DNA of 64,000 bases from Nemertoderma westbladi. Its lineage: Eukaryota > Animalia > Xenacoelomorpha. Position numbers and translations under genes: made by a program. The stretch covers positions 1 to 64,000 of the forward strand of contig JAUCBJ010007036.1 in the NCBI GenBank assembly GCA_032718475.1. The letters are read 5' to 3'. Every line of letters begins with the position of its first letter. Position 1 is the stretch's first letter. The notes under the pieces are model-generated. The model was not told where the DNA came from. It saw nothing but the letters and a program-made list of their open reading frames with translations, and searched no databases. This document shows positions 1,459-64,000 of this stretch, in pieces.

Positions 1459-1673
1459 CTAGGATATCTCCTTTTTGCAGGTGTGTAAGTCAACAGTTTC
1501 TTTGCACAGCACGCATCTTACTTTGCAGCACCAATGGAACTTGCAATGGCATTGAGTTTCTCTCTCCACCTGTCTGATATTGAATCCTCTCCCGCAGCAG
1601 AGATTGTCGCATTTATTTTTGTCGTCCGGGTCCGAAGTAGCGTTGCACGGTCGGTCGCCAGTTCCCAAAGTTC
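1459..1673 (-). CDS. wnt2: Wnt terminal coding exon
   Basis: AATAG acceptor; [10 protein letters not shown]...CDNLCCGRG...[22 protein letters not shown] to TAG. Confidence 0.96.
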
Positions 1674-4600
1674 CTATTGGTATAATAAATATATTTGGGT
1701 ATTATTTATTTAGTAATAAATGTACATATTAAATATATAATATACATGGTATACTATATCGATACAGTTACGAGCATAGGTTGTGGTATAAAAATTATCC
1801 TATCCGAAGGTTAAAGTTATATATGTTTACTTTTTTGTTGGCTTCTTAGACTACATTATTATAATTGTGGGGTCGAACATGTGACCACCAGGTTGGAGGT
1901 CTGGCGTGCTAACTATTCCAATAATAACAGCAGCTCACACCCGCATATAAATTTTATATCTGCAACTTCCAACTTGCAATGGCCGTGAAAATATTAAATC
2001 GCTCGTTTTTGTAAATTGTTATTTCTAAAATTGACTAACTCGGTGACATTTTTCAATTTTTGAATAATTTTGGGTGACTGTGAATTATTTAATTGAATTT
2101 ATTATTTAATACATTCATTAAAAATGAATACAAATTTTATTTAAATGTTTTAGATTGGCGACACTGTTTGACAATGATTACCTGTTTTACTGTCGGTAAA
2201 ACAATAATTTGGCGAGGATTCGAAATAAACGAGTTCAGTGTTTAAGTTTGCGCGATTGTTTTCTACCGGTCTCAATCTCTCTCCCGTCTGATCCATTTCC
2301 ACTCTCACCGCTCTGTCATATTTTTCCCTGAGCTGATCGCCAACCTGAAAATTAAATAAAAGTCAACTAAATTAATATGTGTAGCCTATAGTTACTGTAG
2401 TTACTATAGTTACTTATACTGTAGAGTAGTGGGCCAATTAATAACTCCAGTAGAGAATCAGGTAGGTCCACTCTGTCAAAAAAAATAATATAAAAAAAAT
2501 TGTTCTAACATATTGTAAACATTTTAGACTAGAATTGTGTCTATGTAGTTTCTGGAAATCTGTGTTGTGAAATTGCGAAACAATGCGTACATATGAGCCT
2601 TTGAAGCCAAAACGTTTGAAAAAAAAATATTGAAATTGCAAAACAAATATTGAGAATATAAAAATTATTGATATTACAGAAACGAGTTGGTGTTATAAGA
2701 ATAAAGCTATAAAAATTCTTCCCTTATAGAACACCAACTTTTTTTGGCAATCTCAATAATTTTTATAATCTCAATATGTTGTTTTGTAATCTCAATATAT
2801 ATTTTCTAACATTTTGGCTTCAACTGAGACTCATACATGCGTAACGTTTTTATCTGGAATTATTTTTATAGGCCAAATAACATGAAGCTATAATTTGAAA
2901 TCGTAAAAAATTAATGTTTTTTTTGTAAATGAAAATAATACTGAAGATTGTTTAGGCATATTGAATTACGGGCATAACAAACTTTAGAGTAGTAATAATA
3001 ACTTATAATAATAACAACAATCATGCTGCTCTGAAATTTATTTTGGATAAACTTTCAGTGTAAAGTTAACTAAAGTATCCAAATTGGGCGCCCTGGCAGG
3101 CCGGGCCTAGGAAGCATGCCACGCATCTATAGGCCTATCTATAAATCATAAACCAGAGAATAGTTAGTTTGAGTGAGTACCGGTATGTTAGCTGATGCGA
3201 GCCACATGCTGAGGTTTCACTACTATCCACTACTATGCTACATTTGGAAAAGTAAAATACAGTGTTAGTAATAGTTTACGGTTCAAACTCGAATTGTTTA
3301 GCCTTCCAAATATCTGCACTACTTACACTGCTTAGCATATTAGTTTGTTATTAGTTTGTTTTATAATTATTTATCAATCCTCAAACATATAAAATTCACA
3401 AATAGAAACAGGAACAGTCATTGAAACACAGATACGTGGCGAATAAACAATGGAAAACCTATACAATATCTAAACAAAGAAAAAAACATGAGTTCTACAT
3501 TATTATAGAAAAGGAAAGAAATCATGAAAATAAAAATAACATTCAAGAGATTAATATTTAACATCGACTGAGAGAGAAAACAAACACGTTATTTATTGGC
3601 ATTGTTATTCCTTAGAACAGTCGAAACCAACGTGTTGTGTGAAAAAACATCATCCGTGGCAAAATTTATTTAAAATCTGATTATTAATTTGTTTAAGAAA
3701 ATAAAAGGTGTAAATCGTAATGAGATTATTTTACAATTTTCAAAATTATCCACTAAATATTTCGAACATCAGTAATGTGGGAAAAGGGAAATTGTAAAAA
3801 AGGCGCGTTTGTTTAATCTGTTCTAACGAAAATGTAGTTTAGCAATTTAATTGAAAGTGTTATAATAATAATATACCGTTCTGAAATCGATCATTGACTC
3901 CCAACAGGTTTTTAGTTGACAGTTGGCGCTCGGACCGTGGCATTTACACTGAACTTTTGTCATTTTGCTCGTCGTCTATAGAGAGATTATGGTAAAGATA
4001 AAATTAATTCATTTGAAGCGGGTGATCGTCGCTATAAAAAGTATAATAATAGTAATATAAAATAAAAAGTAAAAAACCACGACTGCTATAATATCTACGT
4101 GAGATTGTTAAATATCGCGTCTTACTTGGGTGTATAGTAATTGTGGATATGATTACGAACTTAGGTGCCCTTAATGCGAATTCGTGTCCCCGACATGCGA
4201 AATTAGGTGTTGAAAATATTGGTGTTTTATCAATAAAATTTAGTGGGACATTCCATATGTAACATCGGTAAATTCATATATGCGAGACAATCTCTAGCAA
4301 AATTGCAATAACATTCACTAAATAAAATATTTTTGCGAGTGACCATATGACCTACTAAAACAGTAGGTCAGGTCGGATTGACTATCCAAGTTTGGTTTAA
4401 TTCCTCTAAGGGTGAGATGAGAACTATAATAATGAGTCCAATATACATTAAGAAGAAGAACACACACGATGCATGTTGTGATTCAATTCGTGCTGTTAGC
4501 TACACTGTATTACCTAAAAAGCTTCCTTAAATTAATTAATAGGTTACATCAGTAAACATGCAGGATCACAGTTTCTCGATGCATAACTTATCAAGAGCCT

Positions 4601-7600
4601 ATCGGCAATCTGACTCGCTTACTTTTTCAAACCTTGGCAGAGTTGTAAAACATGTATGAAAATCACAATTAGAACTCATACCATGACAACGACATACAGT
4701 ACGTTTGCTCTTTTTAACAACCTGAAAAATATAAAAACTGAAGAAGTTAAGCATATAAGATAGAAATCAAGGTCTTCGTTAGATTGGTCATTTTAAATAG
4801 GATTGGCACATAATTTGTATTAATTTAATATAGTCAATAAAAAGAAACGGCAGCTGCAATGCAATATATCAAAGCTCCCGCGCTATGGAGCACATACTTT
4901 CATTCAAAAATTGAATTACAATTTTATGACAAAACGGAGACAAGGCAGTCAGTCTCCTTACCTTTTTAATTTAAGTAGTTACTGTAGACGCCTGCTCCTG
5001 CTACAATATACTAATGCTACCATGCTACCACTACTGCACTGTATAATAAATGGGCAATTACTTGGGTACGGCTGCTGTGGGCGCGGGTCGGCTACCCTTT
5101 TTGCTGCCCAGTGGTATAAAAAAAACTCTGGTAGCATATTTGTAGTTTTGTTAGTTAAATTTTGAAGTTAAATTACAAGTAAGCAAATGCTACCCGCTTA
5201 CAACCAGAAGATGATTAGACGCAGTCCCTGACATATGTACTATCGGGTGATAGCTTTCACTATTGCCTCGCGTAGTAAAATATTATTATTAATAGTTGTT
5301 CTTCATATTAAATTATTTATAGATTTGTGTAACGTCCCGCTACCTATCTCATTTAATCGCCGGTAAACATTTAAAAAGTTAGGCATAAGATTTTATAGGC
5401 ATTGTATGATTGGTATACAGTATGTACTGTATATCTGATGTTGATGTTGTATTCATATTTAAAGTCCTCATTATTAGTCTGCCAAGTTGATAGGGATTAT
5501 AAGAAGGGAATGTATTCAACAGACCATTAAATTAACAGAACCAATACAAGTCAATGATAGTATATACAACCTGATAATTATACATTATCTCATATCTAAA
5601 TCTGAGTTTCTTTTTATAATAATAACAACATTAAAATAGTACATCGTCTGACATTTAAATCGCTAGAAAAGCTTTAATTTTACTAAATTTTGAATTCGCA
5701 TTTCTGGTTGTGCGTAAATCGGACAAGACGAGACAGAGCCGAGGGAGGGGGGAAACTTGACGCAAATGCCATCTCGGCGAATTAATATCTCGTACCAATG
5801 TTAAATCATCAATTAAGGGAAAGGATCAGGTTACAATATCATGGCATTATAACCAAAACAATAAATGAAAGTTAATAGTTTACAATTTTATTTTTGAGAG
5901 TTATCAGCTGTTATTTGAGTTGATTTTCCCCTAGAGAAGGATGAATTTTCATTGAACGAAAGTCCCCCCCCCCCAAATCTGTGTATAAGAAGATCCAAGC
6001 TCAAATATTGTGTATGAATTCAGTTTGATATATAATATTTTGTACAAAATACTCACCCTTCGCCCCGCTCTCGTGTTATGTAGGTTCATTAGGGCCCGAG
6101 GTGTGATTGTCTTCCTGTCCTTGGCATCGATCCATTGTCTCGCCTTATCGGCTCCGTATCGGATATTGTCGCTACATCCGCCCCACTTCGCGTTCTCCTC
6201 GTCGCTAATCCGGGCGTTCCGAGTTTCCGGTTCTTCCGAGTTGTCCACGCACGAGCAGCCCCGGATATTCCCTTTGCTGCATTCGCGAGTGATCGCGTTC
6301 ACTATGGCCGCTGACGTTATCGCGTAAATAAAAGAAACTTCGCGACTCGCTGAAAAGTTAATAATAAAGATTGTGTCGTGGGTTGTCGGGCATAAATCTG
6401 TTATATTCGAACGGGAAACCATGGCGACTAAAGTAACAGAATAATAACCTATCCAGGTCGATTAAAACACAATAATGTATTTTTATTTTACTTTGATTGT
6501 TCGTATTATTTCCCTATTTAGGTAACGGCATAAGAAACGGTATCACTATATAAATAAAAAAAATCCCCACTGAAATCTGCTCCTTTCCGTTACTCACGAA
6601 ACGAATAAGTTATGATAAACCAGAAAGCCAGAAAGAAAAATCAGTCAGAAATCCTCAGTTTGACACTGAGAGTTTATGTATTAGTTTTGTTGTCTGCCTG
6701 GAGGTGTGGTGGGGAGGTGGGGGGGGGGGGGGGGGGGATGTGATTTCCATAACGGGAGGCGTTTATCCTTTATAATTACGTAAAATATTCAACTCTAAAA
6801 TAACTTAAATTCACCGCAGTGTTTTTGCTTCCAAAACCAAATATAATTATCACGCGTTGCTTTCATTAAGGCACAGCAATAAGATTTCATTATCACTTTC
6901 TGTGAGAAACCCCAATAGTAGCGAATAGATAATACGATTACCCACCGGTAACGAGGATATAACACATTTAGTAACAGCTGCAAAGGTTTAATACGACCCG
7001 CAATTCCATGAAAAATATCTTTCGTGTCTCAAATGCTGAGAATCTTGATGGTAAATATGTTGAAATAATAAGTTATCCGTTTCCATGGTAACTAACCGAC
7101 TTGTAGTGCACTGCGGGGTTCCGTTCCCATAGTAACTAACCCACAATGAATGCCCCCAGGGGGTCCGTTCCCATAGTAACTAACCGACACTGAGTGCCCC
7201 GAGGGGGTCCGTTCCCATAGTAACTAACCGACACTGAGTGCCCCGAGGGGATCCGTTCCCATAGTAACTAACCGACACTGAGTGCCCCGAGGGGATCTGT
7301 TCCCATAGTAACTAACCGACACTGAGTGCCCCGTGGGGGTCCGTTCCCATAGTAACTAACCGACACTGAGTGCCCCGTGGGGGTCCGTTCCCATAGTAAC
7401 TAACCGACACTGAGTGCCCCGTGGGGGTCCGTTCCCATAGTGACTAACCGACACTGAGTGCCCCGTGGGGGTCCGTTCCCATAGTAACTAATCGACACTG
7501 AGTGCCCCGTGGGGGTCCGTTCCCATAGTGACTAACCGACACTGAGTGCCCCGTGGGGGTCCGTTCCCATAGTAACTAATCGACACTGAGTGCCCCGTGG

Positions 7601-10585
7601 GGGTCCGTTCCCATAGTAACTAATCGACACTGAGTGCCCCGTGGGGGTCCGTTCCCATAGTGACTAACCGACACTGAGTGCCCCGTGGGGGTCCGTTCCC
7701 ATAGTGACTAACCGACACTGAGTGCCCCAAGGGGGTCCGTTCCCATAGTAACTAACCGACACTGAGTGCCCCGTGGGGGTCCGTTCCCATAGTAACTAAC
7801 CGACACTAAGTGCCCCAAGGGGTTCCGTTCCCATAGTAACCAACCGACACTAAGTGCCCCAAGGGGTTCCGTTCCCATAGTAACTAACCGACACTGAGTG
7901 CTCCCAGGGGGTCCGTTCCCATAGTAACTAACCGACATTGAGTGCCCCAAGGGGGTCCGTTCCCATAGTAACTAACCGACACTGAGTGCCCCGTAGGGGT
8001 CCGTTCCCATAGTAACTAACCGACACTGAGTGCCCCGAGGGGGTCCGTTCCCATAGTAACTAACCGACATTGAGTGCCCCAAGGGGGTCCGTTCCCATAG
8101 TAACTAACCGACACTGAGTGCCCCGAGGGGGTCCGTTCCCATAGTAACTAACCGACATTGAGTGCCCCAAGGGGGTTCGTTCCCATAGTAACTAACCGAC
8201 ACTGAGTGCCCCGAGGGGGTCCGTTCCCATAGTAACTAACCGACACTGAGTGCCCCGAGGGGGTCCGTTCCCATAGTAACTAACCGACACTGAGTGCTCC
8301 CAGGGGGTCCGTTCCCATAGTAACTAACCGACACTGAGTGCCCCGTAGTGCACCGATGGATTCCTTTTCAACGCGGTGCAGTTGAACCTCTCCTTATCGA
8401 ACTGGTGTTCGCACTCATCGAACCCCAACCGCGTCCCGTAACAGATGGCCGTGACGAGATCCGAGTTGGACTTACAGAGTTTCCTCTGCTTCCTCGCGAG
8501 GTTAGAGGTTTTCTGGCAAATCATCTCCACCTGATCGCAGGGCAGGTCGTGGTGGCTCATGAAACTGAAAGTAAATAGGTCAACGAAATTTGTCAACAAT
8601 AACTTACCATAATTTATGTAGTAAAAGAAAAAGGGAATAAAGTTCATTATTTTACTGGTATTACTTTGTAGAATTACCTATATTTCCAATAGATAATTCA
8701 TATAATCTTATCCATTTCACTTAATACAACAACCATTTCTAACAAGTCGGAACCCACCTTCCCCCCCCCCCCCCTAACCCCCTCAGATTTTTTCAAAATT
8801 TTAATAGTATTCTACGAAATTTGGCATGATGATAGTTCGACAATATTTCTTTGATTTTTCGGATTTTTCAATTTCTGAGCTATTTCGATACAACAAGGCT
8901 TATATTTGGCGATATTTAGCCACCTCGGTCGGTTTTATTTTTTGTCTTTTGAATGTAATCTAGATATCATTTGAATTGAACCGCCTTCCTCTGTAGATTC
9001 CTAATCTGAAAAGTTGCCAAAATTATAATCATATCAAATTACTTCGCTAAAAATAAAATATTTACTCAATTCTCTAGAATACTAATCACGCGTAATGAAG
9101 GAACAAGATGGAGAGTTGTAAAAGGGCACGTGTGTGTCAATACATTGAACTAATAAGCTTATGTACCTCTTCTGAAGAATTGGTTCAACAGAATTGCTGT
9201 GGTATGCAATGTGGTATCAGAATAAATAAAAAAATTATTTTGATCACCAGAAATTTTCAAAGTGAAAAATATTATTTTTAAAAGTGAAAAATACAAGTAT
9301 TTTTGTCGATTTTTGTGATGTAACTTTTGAAATGCCGAACTGAAATTTAAGTAATGGAGGTTTTCCTGGTTGGTGAATACATGAAGCCCCGTTCACATCC
9401 AACGGTGCGTGAGCGGTAAAGCATTCTGGCGGTATTGAAGCGGTAAGCCAGCGGTACACTACCCGGAGCCCGTTCACACCCAACGGTACCGTTGCGGTAA
9501 CTGATTGTCTATCTGTCGACTGTGAATTCAACAGGAAATTACATTAATTGTTTTAACATTCTTTAAATAGGCTGCGGTAAACCGCGCGGTGAACAGCACA
9601 ACTACCTGTTGGGTCGTTCACAGTCAGCGGTGTACCGCTGGCCTTCTGTCTGTTGAAATGTAGGAAAGGATACGACCTCTCTAACATTTTAGTTAAAGGG
9701 GTTTCCTGGTCGGTGATTCCATATCTGATGTAGGTATTCCAATATAATGGCTTTGTGTTGGTCTGTATAAATGTCGGTCTGTCCGTCAAAATATAACAGA
9801 CAGACAGACAGCCGGATAGACCATCTAGGTAAAACAGACATCAGAAATTGAATCATAGTCCCGGAAAAGCCCTACAACATTTTAAGTTGTGTATTTATTC
9901 ATTATTTTTGACTGACAGAGAGGCCAACAGACAGACAGACAGGCAGACTGACTGACAGACAGACAGATAGACATGCAGGCAGGCAGAAAGGCAATCTAGA
10001 ATACATAAAACATTAAAACTGACATTAGAAATGTGATCACTAAACAGGAAAAATTCCATAGCAAAAATTACAATGCCTGTGTTCTTTATTTTTGTGAGAC
10101 TGAACGACTGACAAGTAGACAGACCACATCTATAACTCGACAAATAAAAGACATCTCGCTATGTCGTTTTCAGTTTTGAAATCGCCATTAAATGTTTATC
10201 CAGAATTAATAATAATTAGAAATAATCATTATTATTCTAGAATAAAGACAAAAAACATTAGAATTATAGCGATTTTCGTCTCAAAATTTACACCATAGCA
10301 TTTTGATATCTTTGGGGCAATTTTGTGAAATGTAAAACTGTTTTCAGCAGCATGCCGAAACGTGATATCAAGTTGAAACGTCCGTAAACAATAAACATTG
10401 AATCATTATAAAATATCAGAGAATAATCGACAGTTAACAAAAATGATTAAACCGCACACTGTAATACATATTATATCATCGATCAATAATAATTTGTATA
10501 ATACTTACAACCAATGCCCTTGAGCAGTTCCAATTGTTATATACAATATAGCAGACCATATAAACCACAGATTGCAAAACACCAT
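1459..10585 (-). CDS. wnt2: Wnt ligand gene, Wnt2-like; coding exons 10585-10509, 8564-8329, 6349-6057, [4721-4623 or 3975-3877], 2344-2182, 1673-1459; 360 aa
   Basis: All junctions are GT-AG and phase-compatible (1083 nt with one exon 4). Signal peptide plus [79 protein letters not shown]. The Wnt2 subfamily call is by recalled similarity and needs a phylogeny. Confidence 0.93.
2182..2344 (-). CDS. wnt2: Wnt coding exon 5
   Basis: TTTCAG|[21 protein letters not shown]...[18 protein letters not shown]|GTAATC. Confidence 0.93.
2591..2838. mobile_element. Fold-back MITE-like element in a Wnt intron
   Basis: Long imperfect palindrome: TATGAGCCTTTGAAGCCAAAA...TATTGAGAATATAAAAATTATTGA...AGTTGGTGTT mirrored by AACACCAACT...TCAATAATTTTTATAATCTCAATA...TTTTGGCTTCAACTGAGACTCATA. 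Confidence 0.75.
3877..3975 (-). CDS. wnt2: Wnt exon 4b (alternative copy of the lipidation hairpin exon)
   Basis: CTCTCTATAG|[33 protein letters not shown]|GTATAT; 99 nt, phase 0-0. Confidence 0.9.
4623..4721 (-). CDS. wnt2: Wnt exon 4a (alternative copy of the lipidation hairpin exon)
   Basis: ATTTTTCAG|[33 protein letters not shown]|GTAAGC; 99 nt, phase 0-0. Confidence 0.88.
6057..6349 (-). CDS. wnt2: Wnt coding exon 3
   Basis: TTTTCAG acceptor; [13 protein letters not shown]...[11 protein letters not shown]...[11 protein letters not shown]...LHNTRAGRR; GTGAGT donor, phase 0. Confidence 0.96.
7080..8345. repeat. 44-bp minisatellite, ~28 copies, unit spans the Wnt exon 2 donor site
   Basis: Minus-strand unit CGGGGCACTCAGTGTCG|GTTAGTTACTATGGGAACGGACCCCCW; the first copy is the real exon end. 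Confidence 0.97.
8329..8564 (-). CDS. wnt2: Wnt coding exon 2
   Basis: TTTCAG acceptor; FMSHHDLPC...[16 protein letters not shown]...[13 protein letters not shown]...HYGALSV; G|GTTAGT donor. Confidence 0.93.
9380..9640. mobile_element. Degenerate MITE fragments with PIF/Harbinger-like ends
   Basis: Three related (GC)CCGTTCACA..AACGGT starts at ~9385, 9468 and 9612, with GTGAA complements at ~9522 and 9588. Confidence 0.4.
10509..10585 (-). CDS. wnt2: Wnt coding exon 1 (signal peptide)
   Basis: [25 protein letters not shown] then TT|GTAAGT; phase 2 fits the next exon. A possible 5'UTR acceptor (TTTTCCAG) lies at 10648. Confidence 0.85.
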
Positions 10586-20686: not shown

Positions 20687-49551
<28,865 letters not shown>

Positions 49552-53366: not shown

Positions 53367-55049
53367 ATGAATAAAGCTTGGATTCATAATGAGCTACCGC
53401 GGTGGATTCTCATTGGTTGTTGGGTAATTATCAACCTTGGATTATTCATTTCAACCTTCCTCAAATACAGCCTCGCTAAACCGAACCTCTACCTGGTACA
53501 ATTGACCGGGTATAGTTTGCCCTTATCTCGCGCAAGCGCCAGCTGTCTCAATTTCAACTGCTGCCTTATCATTCTCCCCGTGTGTAGGAACCTTATATCT
53601 TTCGTGAGGACTACAGTCGGACCCAATTGTTTCCGGAATTTCGGACGACTTCTCGACCATAACATATCTTACCACAAGTTCCTAGGATATGCAGTGTTGC
53701 TTCTTTCAGCAGTTCATATTTACGCCCACTGTTACAATTTTATTGGTCTTGTTGAATCCTGGGATCCTAAAAACACTGTCAATCATGCACTTAGCTCCCT
53801 TCCTACAGTGATTAACGGCACCCACATCAACCCAGTTCGTCAGGCGAACTCGAAACCCTTATTCGAGGTTTTCAAACACTGGCCCGGATATTCTGGAATC
53901 GTCATAACAATAGCTCTGGTGGTCATAGTAACCTCTAGTACTGAGTTAATTCGACGATCGTATTTCGAATTGTTCTGGTATTCACATCACATGTTCGTAG
54001 TCTTCTATATTGGGTTCGTCGTTCATGGTATTCAAGGTTTGGTGCGTTTCGAGGCAAACACAGAGGAAAACGATCCCGAAATATGCAAAGATCAGATCGA
54101 TAAATGGTCGGACGATGTGAATTCTGTTTGTAAGAATGCTGTTTTTGCACGAACGTCACCTTCTTCGTGGATGTGGGTTCTCATACCGATAATATTATAC
54201 ATTCTAGAACGAATACTGAGATTCGCAAGGAGCTTACGCCCTTATAAAGTTTTAAAGGTTGTATTCCATCAGTCGCAAGTCGTCGAAATAGTTCTTCAGA
54301 AAAAGGAAGGTTTTGTGATTCATTCAGGCCAGTATTGCTTCATTCAGTGCAAAGAAATCTCTCGTTTCGAATGGCACCCGTTTACCCTGACCTCATCGAC
54401 TCAGGATGATTTCCTCGGGTTTCATATACGAAACGAAGGCGATTGGACCGGCGAGTTGATCGATCGAATGAAATCCCCCAATCCTCCGAATCTCGCATTG
54501 GACGGCCCTTTCGGTACGTCAAGCGAAGATATTTTTCGTTACACCGTGGCCATTTGCGTGGCCACCGGAATCGGGGTTACACCTTTCGCTTCACTTCTAA
54601 AGACGATTCACCACCGCATAAATTCAAATTCCGAATTAATTAAATTAAAAGTTATATATTTTATCTGGGTTTGTCGCGATATGAGGGCGTTCGAATGGTT
54701 CGCAGATCTCTTGCGTTCGTTGGAAGAAGACATGAGATCGACCGGACTTATTCGACTTGTGTACAAGATTCATCTATCACGCGGCTGGAACAACGAGAAA
54801 GCGAAAGAAATCTACGGTCATCGCTTCTCCGAATTCGACGATGTCACCGGATTGGCGCATAAGACCCAATACGGACGGCCAGAGTTCGACAGGTTGTTCG
54901 AGGACGTTGCCAACGAACAGAAAGGAAAACACATCGGTGTTTTCTGTTGCGGTGCGGCAGCTGTCACCAAACAGCTGAAAGACATCGCGAAACGCAGATC
55001 CGACACGGAAACTGATACTATATTTTTCTTCAACAAGGAAAACTTTTAA
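53367..55049 (+). CDS. nox2: NADPH oxidase, NOX2/gp91phox (NOX1-3)-like, 560 aa, intronless CDS
   Basis: Heme His pairs HKFLGYAVLLLSAVH and FWYSHH...VVHG; FAD motif EWHPFTLTS; NADPH motifs DGPFG, GIGVTPFAS, VFCCG; C-terminal FNKENF; no EF-hands. AATAAA overlaps the stop codon. Confidence 0.95.
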   Translation: MNKAWIHNELPRWILIGCWVIINLGLFISTFLKYSLAKPNLYLVQLTGYSLPLSRASASCLNFNCCLIILPVCRNLISFVRTTVGPNCFRNFGRLLDHNISYHKFLGYAVLLLSAVHIYAHCYNFIGLVESWDPKNTVNHALSSLPTVINGTHINPVRQANSKPLFEVFKHWPGYSGIVITIALVVIVTSSTELIRRSYFELFWYSHHMFVVFYIGFVVHGIQGLVRFEANTEENDPEICKDQIDKWSDDVNSVCKNAVFARTSPSSWMWVLIPIILYILERILRFARSLRPYKVLKVVFHQSQVVEIVLQKKEGFVIHSGQYCFIQCKEISRFEWHPFTLTSSTQDDFLGFHIRNEGDWTGELIDRMKSPNPPNLALDGPFGTSSEDIFRYTVAICVATGIGVTPFASLLKTIHHRINSNSELIKLKVIYFIWVCRDMRAFEWFADLLRSLEEDMRSTGLIRLVYKIHLSRGWNNEKAKEIYGHRFSEFDDVTGLAHKTQYGRPEFDRLFEDVANEQKGKHIGVFCCGAAAVTKQLKDIAKRRSDTETDTIFFFNKENF

Positions 55050-58094: not shown

Positions 58095-60145
58095 CACACT
58101 GTACTGTAGTTCAGTTATTAGGAAGCGCAATATTAGCCAGATAAAATACACACTCACCAATATTGGTTACACCTTGCCATATAATTGATTACACTGTAGT
58201 TCAGTTGTTAGCACAATATTAGTTAGCCAGATAATATAAACACACACTCACCAATATTGGTTACACCTTATCATATAATTGATTACACTATAGTTCAGTT
58301 GTTAGCACATTAAGGGTTAGCCAGATAATATAAACACGCACTCGCTAATATTGGTTACACCTTGCCATATAATTGATTGCGCTGTAGTTTAGTTGTTAGC
58401 ACAATATTAGTTAGTCAGATAATATAAATCCACACTCGCTAATATTGGTTACTACTACTACTAGAATCGGCATGCTGCATTACAGCTGCATTTTTAAGAA
58501 TGCTGTGCCGGCTTATCGACAACTCCCTATCACCCATGACATTTGCTAGATCATCCGCATCTTCAAGGCCAGTGTCCTTTAAGATGCGTCTCAAGAAAGT
58601 CATGGGCTTGTCCACCATGCTTATTCACTCCATGAGGCTGCCAAAGTACAAGATTATGCACTGGCTGGTCCTCACGGCGAAAGCAATGTCCTGCAAAGCG
58701 GAGGCGATTTTGTTCTAGTGTCAAGCTTGGGGGAACCAATGAGACACCTCCAATGTTATATAGTGTCTGGTTGGAGATGTGTGCATTGTACTTGACACAA
58801 TGAACCCGGCGTAGCATTCTTGTGAAAGTGCCATCCAGAGATTTCGTGTCCTCCGCAGTTAGAGCCCAGCATGGACTCCCATAGAGGAGTACTGGAACTA
58901 CTGCTGCTCTAAATAATCGGACCTTAAGTGTCCGATTAATTCTCGGTGACTTCCAAATCCTGGAAAGCCTATTAAAGGTTGCCCATGCCTTTCCCTTACG
59001 TATTCGAAGGTCCTCATCTGACTTCCGGATACATGATCCCAGGTAACAGAAGTCATCCACATGCTCAAGCATACCATCTTTTGAGCTTATGCTCATCCGA
59101 TCAGAGACTTGCTGAGGACTTTCAAAGTTAACTGTCAAAATTTTGGTCTTTCTGGAGTTAATAAAAAGACACTAGAAGCAGCATGATCTAATGAGCTGAG
59201 GAGCCGTTGGGCTCCCTCTAGTGATTCTGAGAGTACTCCTAAGTCATCAGCAAAGTCTAGATCAGTTAGGTACTTGGCAGGATTTCCTCGACTTCTGGAG
59301 CCAGTAGGTGGAGTTATGAGCACCCCATCATCATTATGATGATCTAAGGACATGCGTAGAACATAGTCAACAACAATTATTAACAAGAATGGTGCAATTG
59401 TGTCTCCCTGGAGGACGCCCTATAACACTTCAAATGGTTCTGTGTCACCGTCAACAGTAGACACAAATGTTGTCGAACCATCGTATACTGATCGGATTGC
59501 TGCAATAATTTCATCAGGAATCCCATATAATGAAAGTATGCTGAACATACGTGAGCGAGAGACTGATTCAAAGGCCTTGAAGAAGTCAACAAAGATAACA
59601 GCCAGATGCCTGTCTTTCTTTTTTGATAACTCTTCAATTATCCTTCTAAGTGCCAAAATGGGCTCCATGGTCCCACGACCTTTACGGAACCCATTCTGAT
59701 TTCCACGGAGCAGTCTCTCAATGGGATCCCTGATGCGATTTAATAGAATTATATTGTATAGCTTTGCAGCAATCGAGATCAATGAGATTCCCCGAAAAGA
59801 ACCATAGAGTGTTAGGTTGCCCTTCTTGGGAACTGGCACCAACTTATTTGTTTTCATTTCTTGTGGGACTCTTGTTGTTCGGTACATGTCTACTATGATG
59901 GGATAGATGAGCTTTAAACACTCAGGTATTTTAAAGAACTAGAACTAGCTCTTAATATTGGTTACACCTTGTCATATAATTGAATACACTGTAGTTCAGT
60001 TGTTAGCACAATATTAGTTAGCCAGATAATATAAACACACACTCGCTAATATTGGTTACACCTTGTCATATAATTGATTACACTATAGTTCAGTTGTTAG
60101 CACAATGTTAGTTAGCCAGATTATATAGGTACACACTCGTCAATA
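58095..60145. repeat. 94-bp minisatellite (~6 copies) interrupted by a LINE
   Basis: Unit starts (ACACTGTAGTTCAGTT) at 58191, 58285, 58379, then 59986 and 60080. Confidence 0.9.
58453..59952 (-). mobile_element. Second RTE-like LINE copy, more 5'-truncated and frameshifted
   Basis: Near-identical to 38648-40143; the RT is broken into ORFs 59420-59887, 59135-59386 and 58563-59138; (TAG)n tail; TSD TAATATTGGTTAC at 58440-58452 and 59953-59965. Confidence 0.93.
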
Positions 60146-63110: not shown

Positions 63111-63520
63111 ATTCACTTTATACTTAGTTTAAAATAGTCTCATTACATAGTTTATTGCTTTCGTCAAATCCATACATAAACACCGTCTCAGTCAGTGTTG
63201 GCTTGTATATCATTACGTAGTGTAACATAGTACAATCAGACAGTAGCCGAGTACACCTAGCTACATCAAGAGCTGCCAGTAGTATCATAAATTCTACCAA
63301 GTACAGACGTACTGCTGCCCGGTGCAGTGCTTAAGCAGACCTCTCTCGTGGCGTCCAGCTACCCTAGCCTTAAAATAAAACTGTGAGTCCCTGTTGTCTG
63401 CCCACTACTAGTCCAGCATGTTTACAATACAAATACACCCTGGTGTAGGCTTACTACTCCCTTGGTTCGCTTGTTTGGTTGTCCAGTGATTATTTCGTAT
63501 TTTGCTACCGACGGAAAACA

Positions 63521-64000
63521 ATGCCTAAACGTCACTGTCCATTCACAACCTCCAGTCCTCAACTGAAAGTTAACGTTGGCGTTAAAGAAATTAACGCAGG
63601 GGTTGATTGTGTGGAACGAATGAAAAAAGTTTACGAAAGGACACAGAATCTACTAGCAATGGGTTCGGCTATTGCGTTTACGAGTGCAACAGCGGCCTCA
63701 CCAGTATGTACTTGTAATGATCAAGATCATCGCGAAACTGCAGAAGCGTCCAACGGACAGGCTACTATCACTGAAGCAATGGGTCTGCATAAACCCGCGA
63801 ACAATAATGTCGGCATCAATAGACCGTGTTGCAGCAACCAACAAGCAAACACCCAACATCTATGTTACTACTGCTCAAGTGTTCTTTGTAGCCATTGCGA
63901 TTATGTTTGTGCTATCTGTTCCCGTTATTGCTGTTCAAATTGTTCAGTCACTAATTATGACAACTCCGACAATCAACAGATTTGCTTAGATTGCGCTTAG
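63521..64000 (+). CDS. siva1: Apoptosis regulatory protein Siva, 159 aa, intronless CDS
   Basis: MPKRHCPF...PQLKVNVG.KEIN.GV......KKVYERTQNLL..G matches the SIVA N-terminus (MPKRSCPF..QLKV..V.EKT..LL); C-terminal Cys-rich zinc fingers (C..C...LC..C...C..C...C..C...CLDC); TAG at the window end. Confidence 0.9.
   Translation: MPKRHCPFTTSSPQLKVNVGVKEINAGVDCVERMKKVYERTQNLLAMGSAIAFTSATAASPVCTCNDQDHRETAEASNGQATITEAMGLHKPANNNVGINRPCCSNQQANTQHLCYYCSSVLCSHCDYVCAICSRYCCSNCSVTNYDNSDNQQICLDCA

Follow-up and report, generated by a model that had tools for sequence, protein, structure and literature searches.

Two paralogous exons for the acylated thumb in a Wnt2-like gene of Nemertoderma westbladi, a probable case of mutually exclusive splicing

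Can a single Wnt gene make two ligands by exchanging the exon that encodes the acylated hairpin? The question is raised by a stretch of 64,000 nt from the xenacoelomorph Nemertoderma westbladi (GenBank assembly GCA_032718475.1, contig JAUCBJ010007036.1, positions 1 to 64,000 of the forward strand; hereafter the window), in which a Wnt2-like gene on the minus strand (10585-1459) contains two neighboring exons, 4a (4623..4721) and 4b (3877..3975), for the part of the ligand known as the thumb. A previous sequence-only reading had proposed mutually exclusive splicing of the two. When the sequence was re-read, the anatomy on which this proposal rested was confirmed: both exons are 99 nt long, of phase 0-0 and stop-free, they lie 647 nt apart (the 4a-4b intron, 3976..4622), and canonical AG and GT dinucleotides flank each of them (ttttcag/GTT...AAA/gtaagc for 4a and ctatag/ACG...ACG/gtatat for 4b). 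The two translations were reproduced letter for letter. With either exon, the frame is open from exon 1 to the stop codon and gives a normal 360-aa Wnt, as had been claimed; with both, 33 aa are added and the frame remains open, so that the 393-aa product that had been mentioned is formally encoded.

Two paralogous thumb exons are confirmed to be present in this one Wnt gene. Each carries the CxCHGxS hairpin with its four Cys residues and the acyl-Ser, which belong, together with HG, to the 11 of 33 residues shared by the two exons (about one third, the proportion originally estimated), and the acyl-Ser codon is AGY in both. Taken alone, 4a scored 32.4 bits and 4b scored 34.8 bits against the Pfam wnt profile (PF00110; cut-off 20.3), each covering profile positions ~152-183, and both could be aligned with Wnt3a, as the hairpin peptide in PDB 7URD and as the protein in 7DRT. 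No other open 99-nt frame bounded by AG and GT was present in 2345-6056. At the DNA level, 4a and 4b are identical at 42 of 99 nt (16, 17, and 9 of 33 at the first, second, and third codon positions), and this low identity together with unrelated flanks rules out an assembly or haplotype artefact. A second, interleaved Wnt gene within the window was also ruled out, by the Wnt profile and a survey of open reading frames (ORFs). Searched against the window in 2,809 six-frame pieces, the profile found only the six exons of this gene at E<0.05; therefore, 4a does not belong to another Wnt gene located there.

The divergence between the exons was used to evaluate selection. The proportion of differing synonymous sites (pS) was 0.88, which is saturated, and that of nonsynonymous sites (pN) was 0.50. 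In a simulation of neutral decay, in which 4b was mutated to the observed identity (substitutions only, without insertions or deletions), the frame, the four Cys codons, and the AG/GT sites were all kept in 0 of 50,000 runs; when the runs were halted at 60 or 70 identities, these features were kept in 0.01% and 0.15% of them, respectively. Furthermore, nine columns are conserved in 31 or more of 32 reference thumbs; 4a retains 8 of them, and its change at the ninth, W to F, is conservative. The absence of neutral runs that kept these features and the retention of the conserved columns indicate that 4a evolved for a long time under constraint at the protein level, and so the purifying selection on both exons that had been suggested is borne out for the long past. 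This result concerns the history of 4a and says nothing of its present-day use.

The two exons are not alike in composition. Judged by its residues, 4b is an orthodox Wnt2 thumb (its highest similarity is to Wnt2 thumbs, with a mean BLOSUM of 103, in agreement with the rest of the gene), and 4a is an atypical one. The GC content at third codon positions (GC3) amounts to 4/32 in 4a, whereas the remaining mature-domain exons reach 196/322 (p=1e-7), and all 39 blocks taken from two neighboring genes are higher than 4a as well. This low GC3 may reflect a rarely used exon that drifts at silent sites. The shift toward T is limited to third positions (GC counts of 12/16/5 by codon position), as coding constraint predicts. 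The splice sites of 4a look as good as those of 4b or better: the donor scores were 3.6 for 4a versus -0.5 for 4b (top 2.3% versus 16.6% of GT sites, using a generic matrix), and the acceptor tract contains 11 T in 4a versus 5 in 4b.

On balance, we consider it probable that 4a and 4b are mutually exclusive thumb exons, with 4b likely giving the main form of the ligand and 4a giving a minor form that is probably acylated but less well secreted. The sequence criteria for such exons in PMC5740500 describe this pair: they are neighboring, similar in length, in the same frame, homologous, stop-free, and bounded by GT-AG introns. In this scheme, exon 5 would follow whichever of 4a and 4b had been joined to exon 3. 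Transcripts containing both thumbs or neither would be in frame, but two core helices of the protein would be interrupted; regulated exon choice, in combination with the misfolding of wrong products, probably keeps the two exclusive. A folding constraint, one of the ways named in PMC5740500 by which exons come to be exclusive at the protein level, was assessed in an AlphaFold model of an onychophoran Wnt2 (26-row alignment, mean pLDDT 74), a homologue and not the isoforms themselves. In this model, the equivalent of the exon (residues 200-232) starts in a helix (185-203), contains the two strands of a hairpin (205-212 and 220-227), and ends in another helix (230-242). A folding constraint fits this arrangement, and because both exon ends lie inside modeled helices, double inclusion and the 393-aa double-thumb Wnt of the sequence-only reading are disfavored. 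That reading is thus supported in part: the paralogous thumbs, the long selection, the exclusive-exon anatomy, and the lack of a Wnt precedent were upheld. To it can be added that the two exons are not equivalent, 4b being orthodox and 4a atypical in GC3 and at an invariant Trp.

What would distinguish the two ligands? In the 7DRT alignment (Wnt3a numbering), 4a has the changes K202V, K204R, L208M, G210S, S211N, K215H, and W218F, and 4b has K202Q, L208P, G210A, and S211N, with K215 and W218 retained. Where VSGS is usual, 4b has PSAN and 4a has MSSN. Trp occupies the W218 column in 32/32 references and is replaced by Phe in 4a, several other columns of which hold residues found in 0/32 references. 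Interface 1 with Wntless consists of Wnt3a K202, K215, T216, and W218, and these residues make no contact with the cysteine-rich domain of Frizzled in Wnt3, according to the authors; K215A/W218A lowered Wntless binding and secretion, with ~60% of signaling left (PMC8316347). The Wnt3a mutant W218A was secreted at a level ~60% lower, G210A was similar to the wild type, G210R was inactive, and K204, L208, and W218 were secondary Frizzled contacts (PMC4068752). In PMC13434646, W218A was reduced yet lipidated, and G210T lost surface display. The changes in 4a thus map best to residues for Wntless contact and secretion, and among Frizzled contacts only to secondary ones. Both isoforms would retain the Ser that is the Porcupine site, and the mutant effects at K215, W218, and G210 lead to the prediction that both are acylated and that the 4a form is less well released. 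Altered at the equivalents of the Wntless-contacting K202, K215, W218, and G210, the 4a form would have a lower output or a shorter range. An altered Frizzled preference through the positions of L208 and W218 is possible but less supported. Of the different receptor or secretion properties suggested at the outset, the secretion part is therefore the one favored by the Wnt3a mutants, and the receptor part comes down to secondary contacts.

Several observations weigh against exclusive use of a well-secreted 4b and a poorly secreted 4a. Enforcement by frameshift and nonsense-mediated decay does not apply, as 99 nt is a multiple of 3, and simple steric exclusion (for which the donor-to-branch distance should be <50 nt) would need a shorter intron than one of 647 nt; the zone before the 4b acceptor is free of AG, the first upstream AG being 54 nt away. 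The donors gtgagt, gtaagc, and gtatat lack the U12 consensus and give no sign of a U2/U12 mismatch. Tandem exon duplication has been linked to competing RNA stems (PMC6071210). In this gene, repeats and duplexes that could act as docking and selector stems did not exceed chance, and the best duplexes between introns, in this one species, were equaled by 15, 25, and 18 of 40 shuffles. Among human candidates proposed from sequence, only 1,399 of 6,541 were validated and 1,741 were undecided (PMC5740500). The GC3 of exon 1 is also low (5/21), and therefore low GC3 is no proof that 4a is rarely used. The mutants on which the secretion prediction is based are Ala, Thr, or Arg substitutions in mammalian Wnt3a, whereas 4a has H, F, and S, and the change of W to F may be harmless. 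The mean BLOSUM of 4a was higher with Wnt7 (93) and Wnt16 (86) than with Wnt2 (77) or 4b (71). Lastly, the sequence is compatible with a recent silencing of 4a, the probability that all of its intact features survive neutral drift being 0.69, 0.49, and 0.16 at 0.01, 0.02, and 0.05 substitutions per site, respectively.

The history of the pair bears on how it is read. Several genomic ORFs among the matches to exon 3 stop after GRR or GRK, which indicates that the intron 5′ of the thumb is old, whereas a fish-like Wnt2 genomic ORF (P0082) continues uninterrupted across the 3′ thumb junction, so that the 3′ intron is probably lineage-specific, although the examples are few. This 3′ intron would have created a symmetric 99-nt exon, which would then have been duplicated long ago, both copies being kept by protein-level selection. 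Alternatively, 4a could be the thumb of a Wnt7/16/1-type paralogue brought in by recombination or gene conversion, which would make the ligand chimeric and would be compatible with exclusive splicing. Maximum-likelihood grafting of 4a onto each of the 53 branches of a tree with 28 rows placed it best on a Wnt16-like branch, with the position as sister to its own gene 4.1 log-likelihood units lower, and the TLPRF and CRCHG motifs of 4a are also those of Wnt7- and Wnt16-like references. However, the sister position was not rejected (approximately unbiased test, p=0.205, 33 columns), and a Trichinella protein grouping with Wnt2 has the LP too. The introns flanking 4a and 4b were no more alike than shuffles. 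What speaks for a local duplication is that 4a and 4b have in common an Asn in the S211 column that is found in 0/32 references, the loss of G210, the AGY codon for the acyl-Ser, and exactly the same boundaries, including that of the lineage-specific 3′ intron. We regard capture from a paralogue as unlikely, and it is somewhat less likely still that one locus switches between its own Wnt2 thumb and a captured Wnt7/16-type thumb to give two ligands that differ in Wntless handling, range, and Frizzled preference, in which case Wnts would have diversified through exchange of the lipidated hairpin and not by the duplication of genes.

Exon 4a may have been a functional alternative exon that recently fell silent, with only the 4b form made today. 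The loss of a Trp present in all 32 references, the unprecedented residues at several columns, and a GC3 that differs from the rest of the gene are what such an exon might show, as is the survival of intact features over short neutral drift noted above. Its death would have to fall within a short late window, since that survival drops to P=0.024 at 0.1 and 0.001 at 0.2 substitutions per site, and both the splice sites, which equal or exceed those of 4b, and the confinement of the T-rich shift to third positions speak for continued use; we consider this silencing improbable. Routine inclusion of both exons, by which the 393-aa Wnt would carry a double thumb and perhaps a second lipid, is compatible with the open frame, with the absence among the features found of any RNA element that forbids joining 4a to 4b, and with the many similar adjacent human exons that are not exclusive (PMC5740500). 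Yet it would place both junctions within the helices of the homologue model, an adjacent double thumb motif was present in 0 of 152 Wnt relatives (31 with the motif, most of the others being fragments), and the sole protein with two motifs, P0003, consists of two entire Wnt domains in series, so that we think it very unlikely. The use of 4a as a terminal exon, producing a truncated Wnt without the index finger that might act as an inhibitor, would draw on an in-frame stop 8 codons past the 4a donor (read-through would add 7 residues) and on an ATTAAA at 4401-4396. This hexamer abounds in AT-rich DNA, the 4a-4b intron showed no AATAAA, and 4a has a good donor exactly where 4b has its own; we consider this reading very unlikely as well. 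The preferred reading of mutually exclusive thumb exons, with 4b as the likely main form, was retained as the probable one.

Exon 1 of the gene (10509..10585), assigned from sequence and frame, starts with ATG, encodes a hydrophobic segment that resembles a signal peptide, and ends in phase 2. It is followed by exon 2 (8329..8564; Pfam wnt positions 2-53, and frame), exon 3 (6057..6349; 62-151, ending in phase 0 with ...RAGRR), the thumb exons, exon 5 (2182..2344; 185-239), and the coding part of exon 6 including the stop codon (1459..1673; 243-305), all on the minus strand. All six pieces scanned exceeded the Pfam cut-off, and together they tile profile positions 2-305. The named matches of exon 3 were for the most part Wnt2/2b, with a best identity of 58% among 150 matches listed of 1,750. 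No close relative of the gene was found among the protein matches of exon 3 or in a metagenome scan, which gave one distant locus (L001, 39%), and 4a with its flanks had three words in common with 0 proteins. ESM Atlas matches were to wnt clusters only (0.83), which is a lead only. In the tree, the gene was closest to Wnt2 by path and by identity, on a long branch; its nearest row was the onychophoran Wnt2 (45% over 318 columns), and it sits in an open fork with Wnt2, Wnt7/16, and Wnt4 (the tree was built without Wnt5, WntA, and Wnt11 references). We accordingly call the gene Wnt2-like, the tree leaving its subfamily open.

Two repeats are located within this gene. A 44-nt minisatellite of 28.9 copies (7076-8345) begins at the end of exon 2 and copies the exon 2 splice donor 24 times; past the first donor, a TAG is met immediately, and only the first copy is thus productive. 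In the intron 3′ of 4b, nested inverted repeats at 2601-2823 have 58-nt arms that are 81% complementary and resemble a miniature inverted-repeat transposable element. Among the Wnt relatives, P0003 is a 636-aa Owenia entry with a Wnt9-like and a Wnt1-like domain, and it is probably a merged annotation of clustered genes.

Elsewhere in the window, an intronless NADPH oxidase 2-like gene (53367-55049, plus strand) encodes 560 aa with a best match of 48%. Its tree position is unstable: it came out next to Dimorphilus, or, once 20 and then 21 of 53 rows had been removed, next to gastropods or an unnamed sequence, and taken by itself it points to no more than a long-branch invertebrate. A PI3-kinase p110-like gene (20690-35807, minus strand) of about six large exons was recognized by eye from ORFs, and its introns contain two tandem arrays, one that spans 6 kb with a unit of 20 nt (26402-32402) and one with a unit of 36 nt (21209-23669). 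Also by eye, two related pieces of a reverse transcriptase like that of long interspersed nuclear elements were recognized (38628-40493 and 58566-59938, minus strand). A 183-aa open frame (63449-63997, plus strand) has a hydrophobic stretch at its end.

Wnt diversity is normally attributed to gene duplication into subfamilies, and no part of the ligand is under stronger constraint than the thumb. If our interpretation is correct, the lipid site of a morphogen can be a point at which splicing tunes it, although the scope may be a single lineage. Two selected thumbs on one Wnt body amount to a natural swap experiment, in which the influence of hairpin residues on acylation, Wntless release, range, and receptor choice can be tested directly. 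Another suggestion from the pair is that ligands can be missed where a single isoform is annotated.

The earlier statement that no Wnt is known to be diversified in this way agrees with our searches: no precedent was found in full-text literature searches (listings and starts of abstracts, with subscription journals and bioRxiv supplements outside their reach) or in two human catalogues of duplicated or exclusive exons, the PMC8373072 supplement and the PMC5740500 supplement files, which gave 0 WNT hits (long files of the latter may be truncated). A xenacoelomorph Wnt study (PMC12592216) contributes Wnt repertoires only, and none of three short motifs occurs in its supplement, a negative without weight because that supplement is mainly made up of tree figures. 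A thumbless entry, P0045, was rejected as a parallel case because it is a frameshifted isoform. Ligands and receptors that swap duplicated exons are known, but these searches showed none among the Wnts.

How does this locus compare with known systems? The closest precedent among ligands is that of NRG1 and NRG2, which are secreted and have homologous internal alternative exons, as here. These exons alter the receptor-binding EGF domain (alpha and beta forms). They differ from 4a and 4b in belonging to another fold without a lipid site and in that their splicing is proven, whereas that of 4a and 4b is predicted. The IIIb and IIIc exons of FGFR2 are likewise mutually exclusive copies of a duplicated internal exon and swap an interaction surface, but on the receptor side, whereas the Wnt gene encodes a ligand. 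NRG1, NRG2, CALCA, and FGFR2 are all listed in the human duplicated-exon catalogue (PMC8373072 supplement), and NRG1 is also in PMC5740500. Within the family, the Wnt2 subfamily ligands are the most similar, the nearest row being the onychophoran Wnt2 and 4b being closest to Wnt2 thumbs; this gene differs in an additional intron after the thumb, in PSAN or MSSN where VSGS is usual, and in its long branch. Several proteins are also made from one Wnt locus in the case of the long and short forms of Wnt5a, the long one having an additional N-terminal helix (PMC13434646), and of the X1 and X2 forms of Mercenaria Wnt2b, which differ at the N-terminus only. Whereas these isoforms change the N-terminus, 4a and 4b would swap the acylated hairpin itself.

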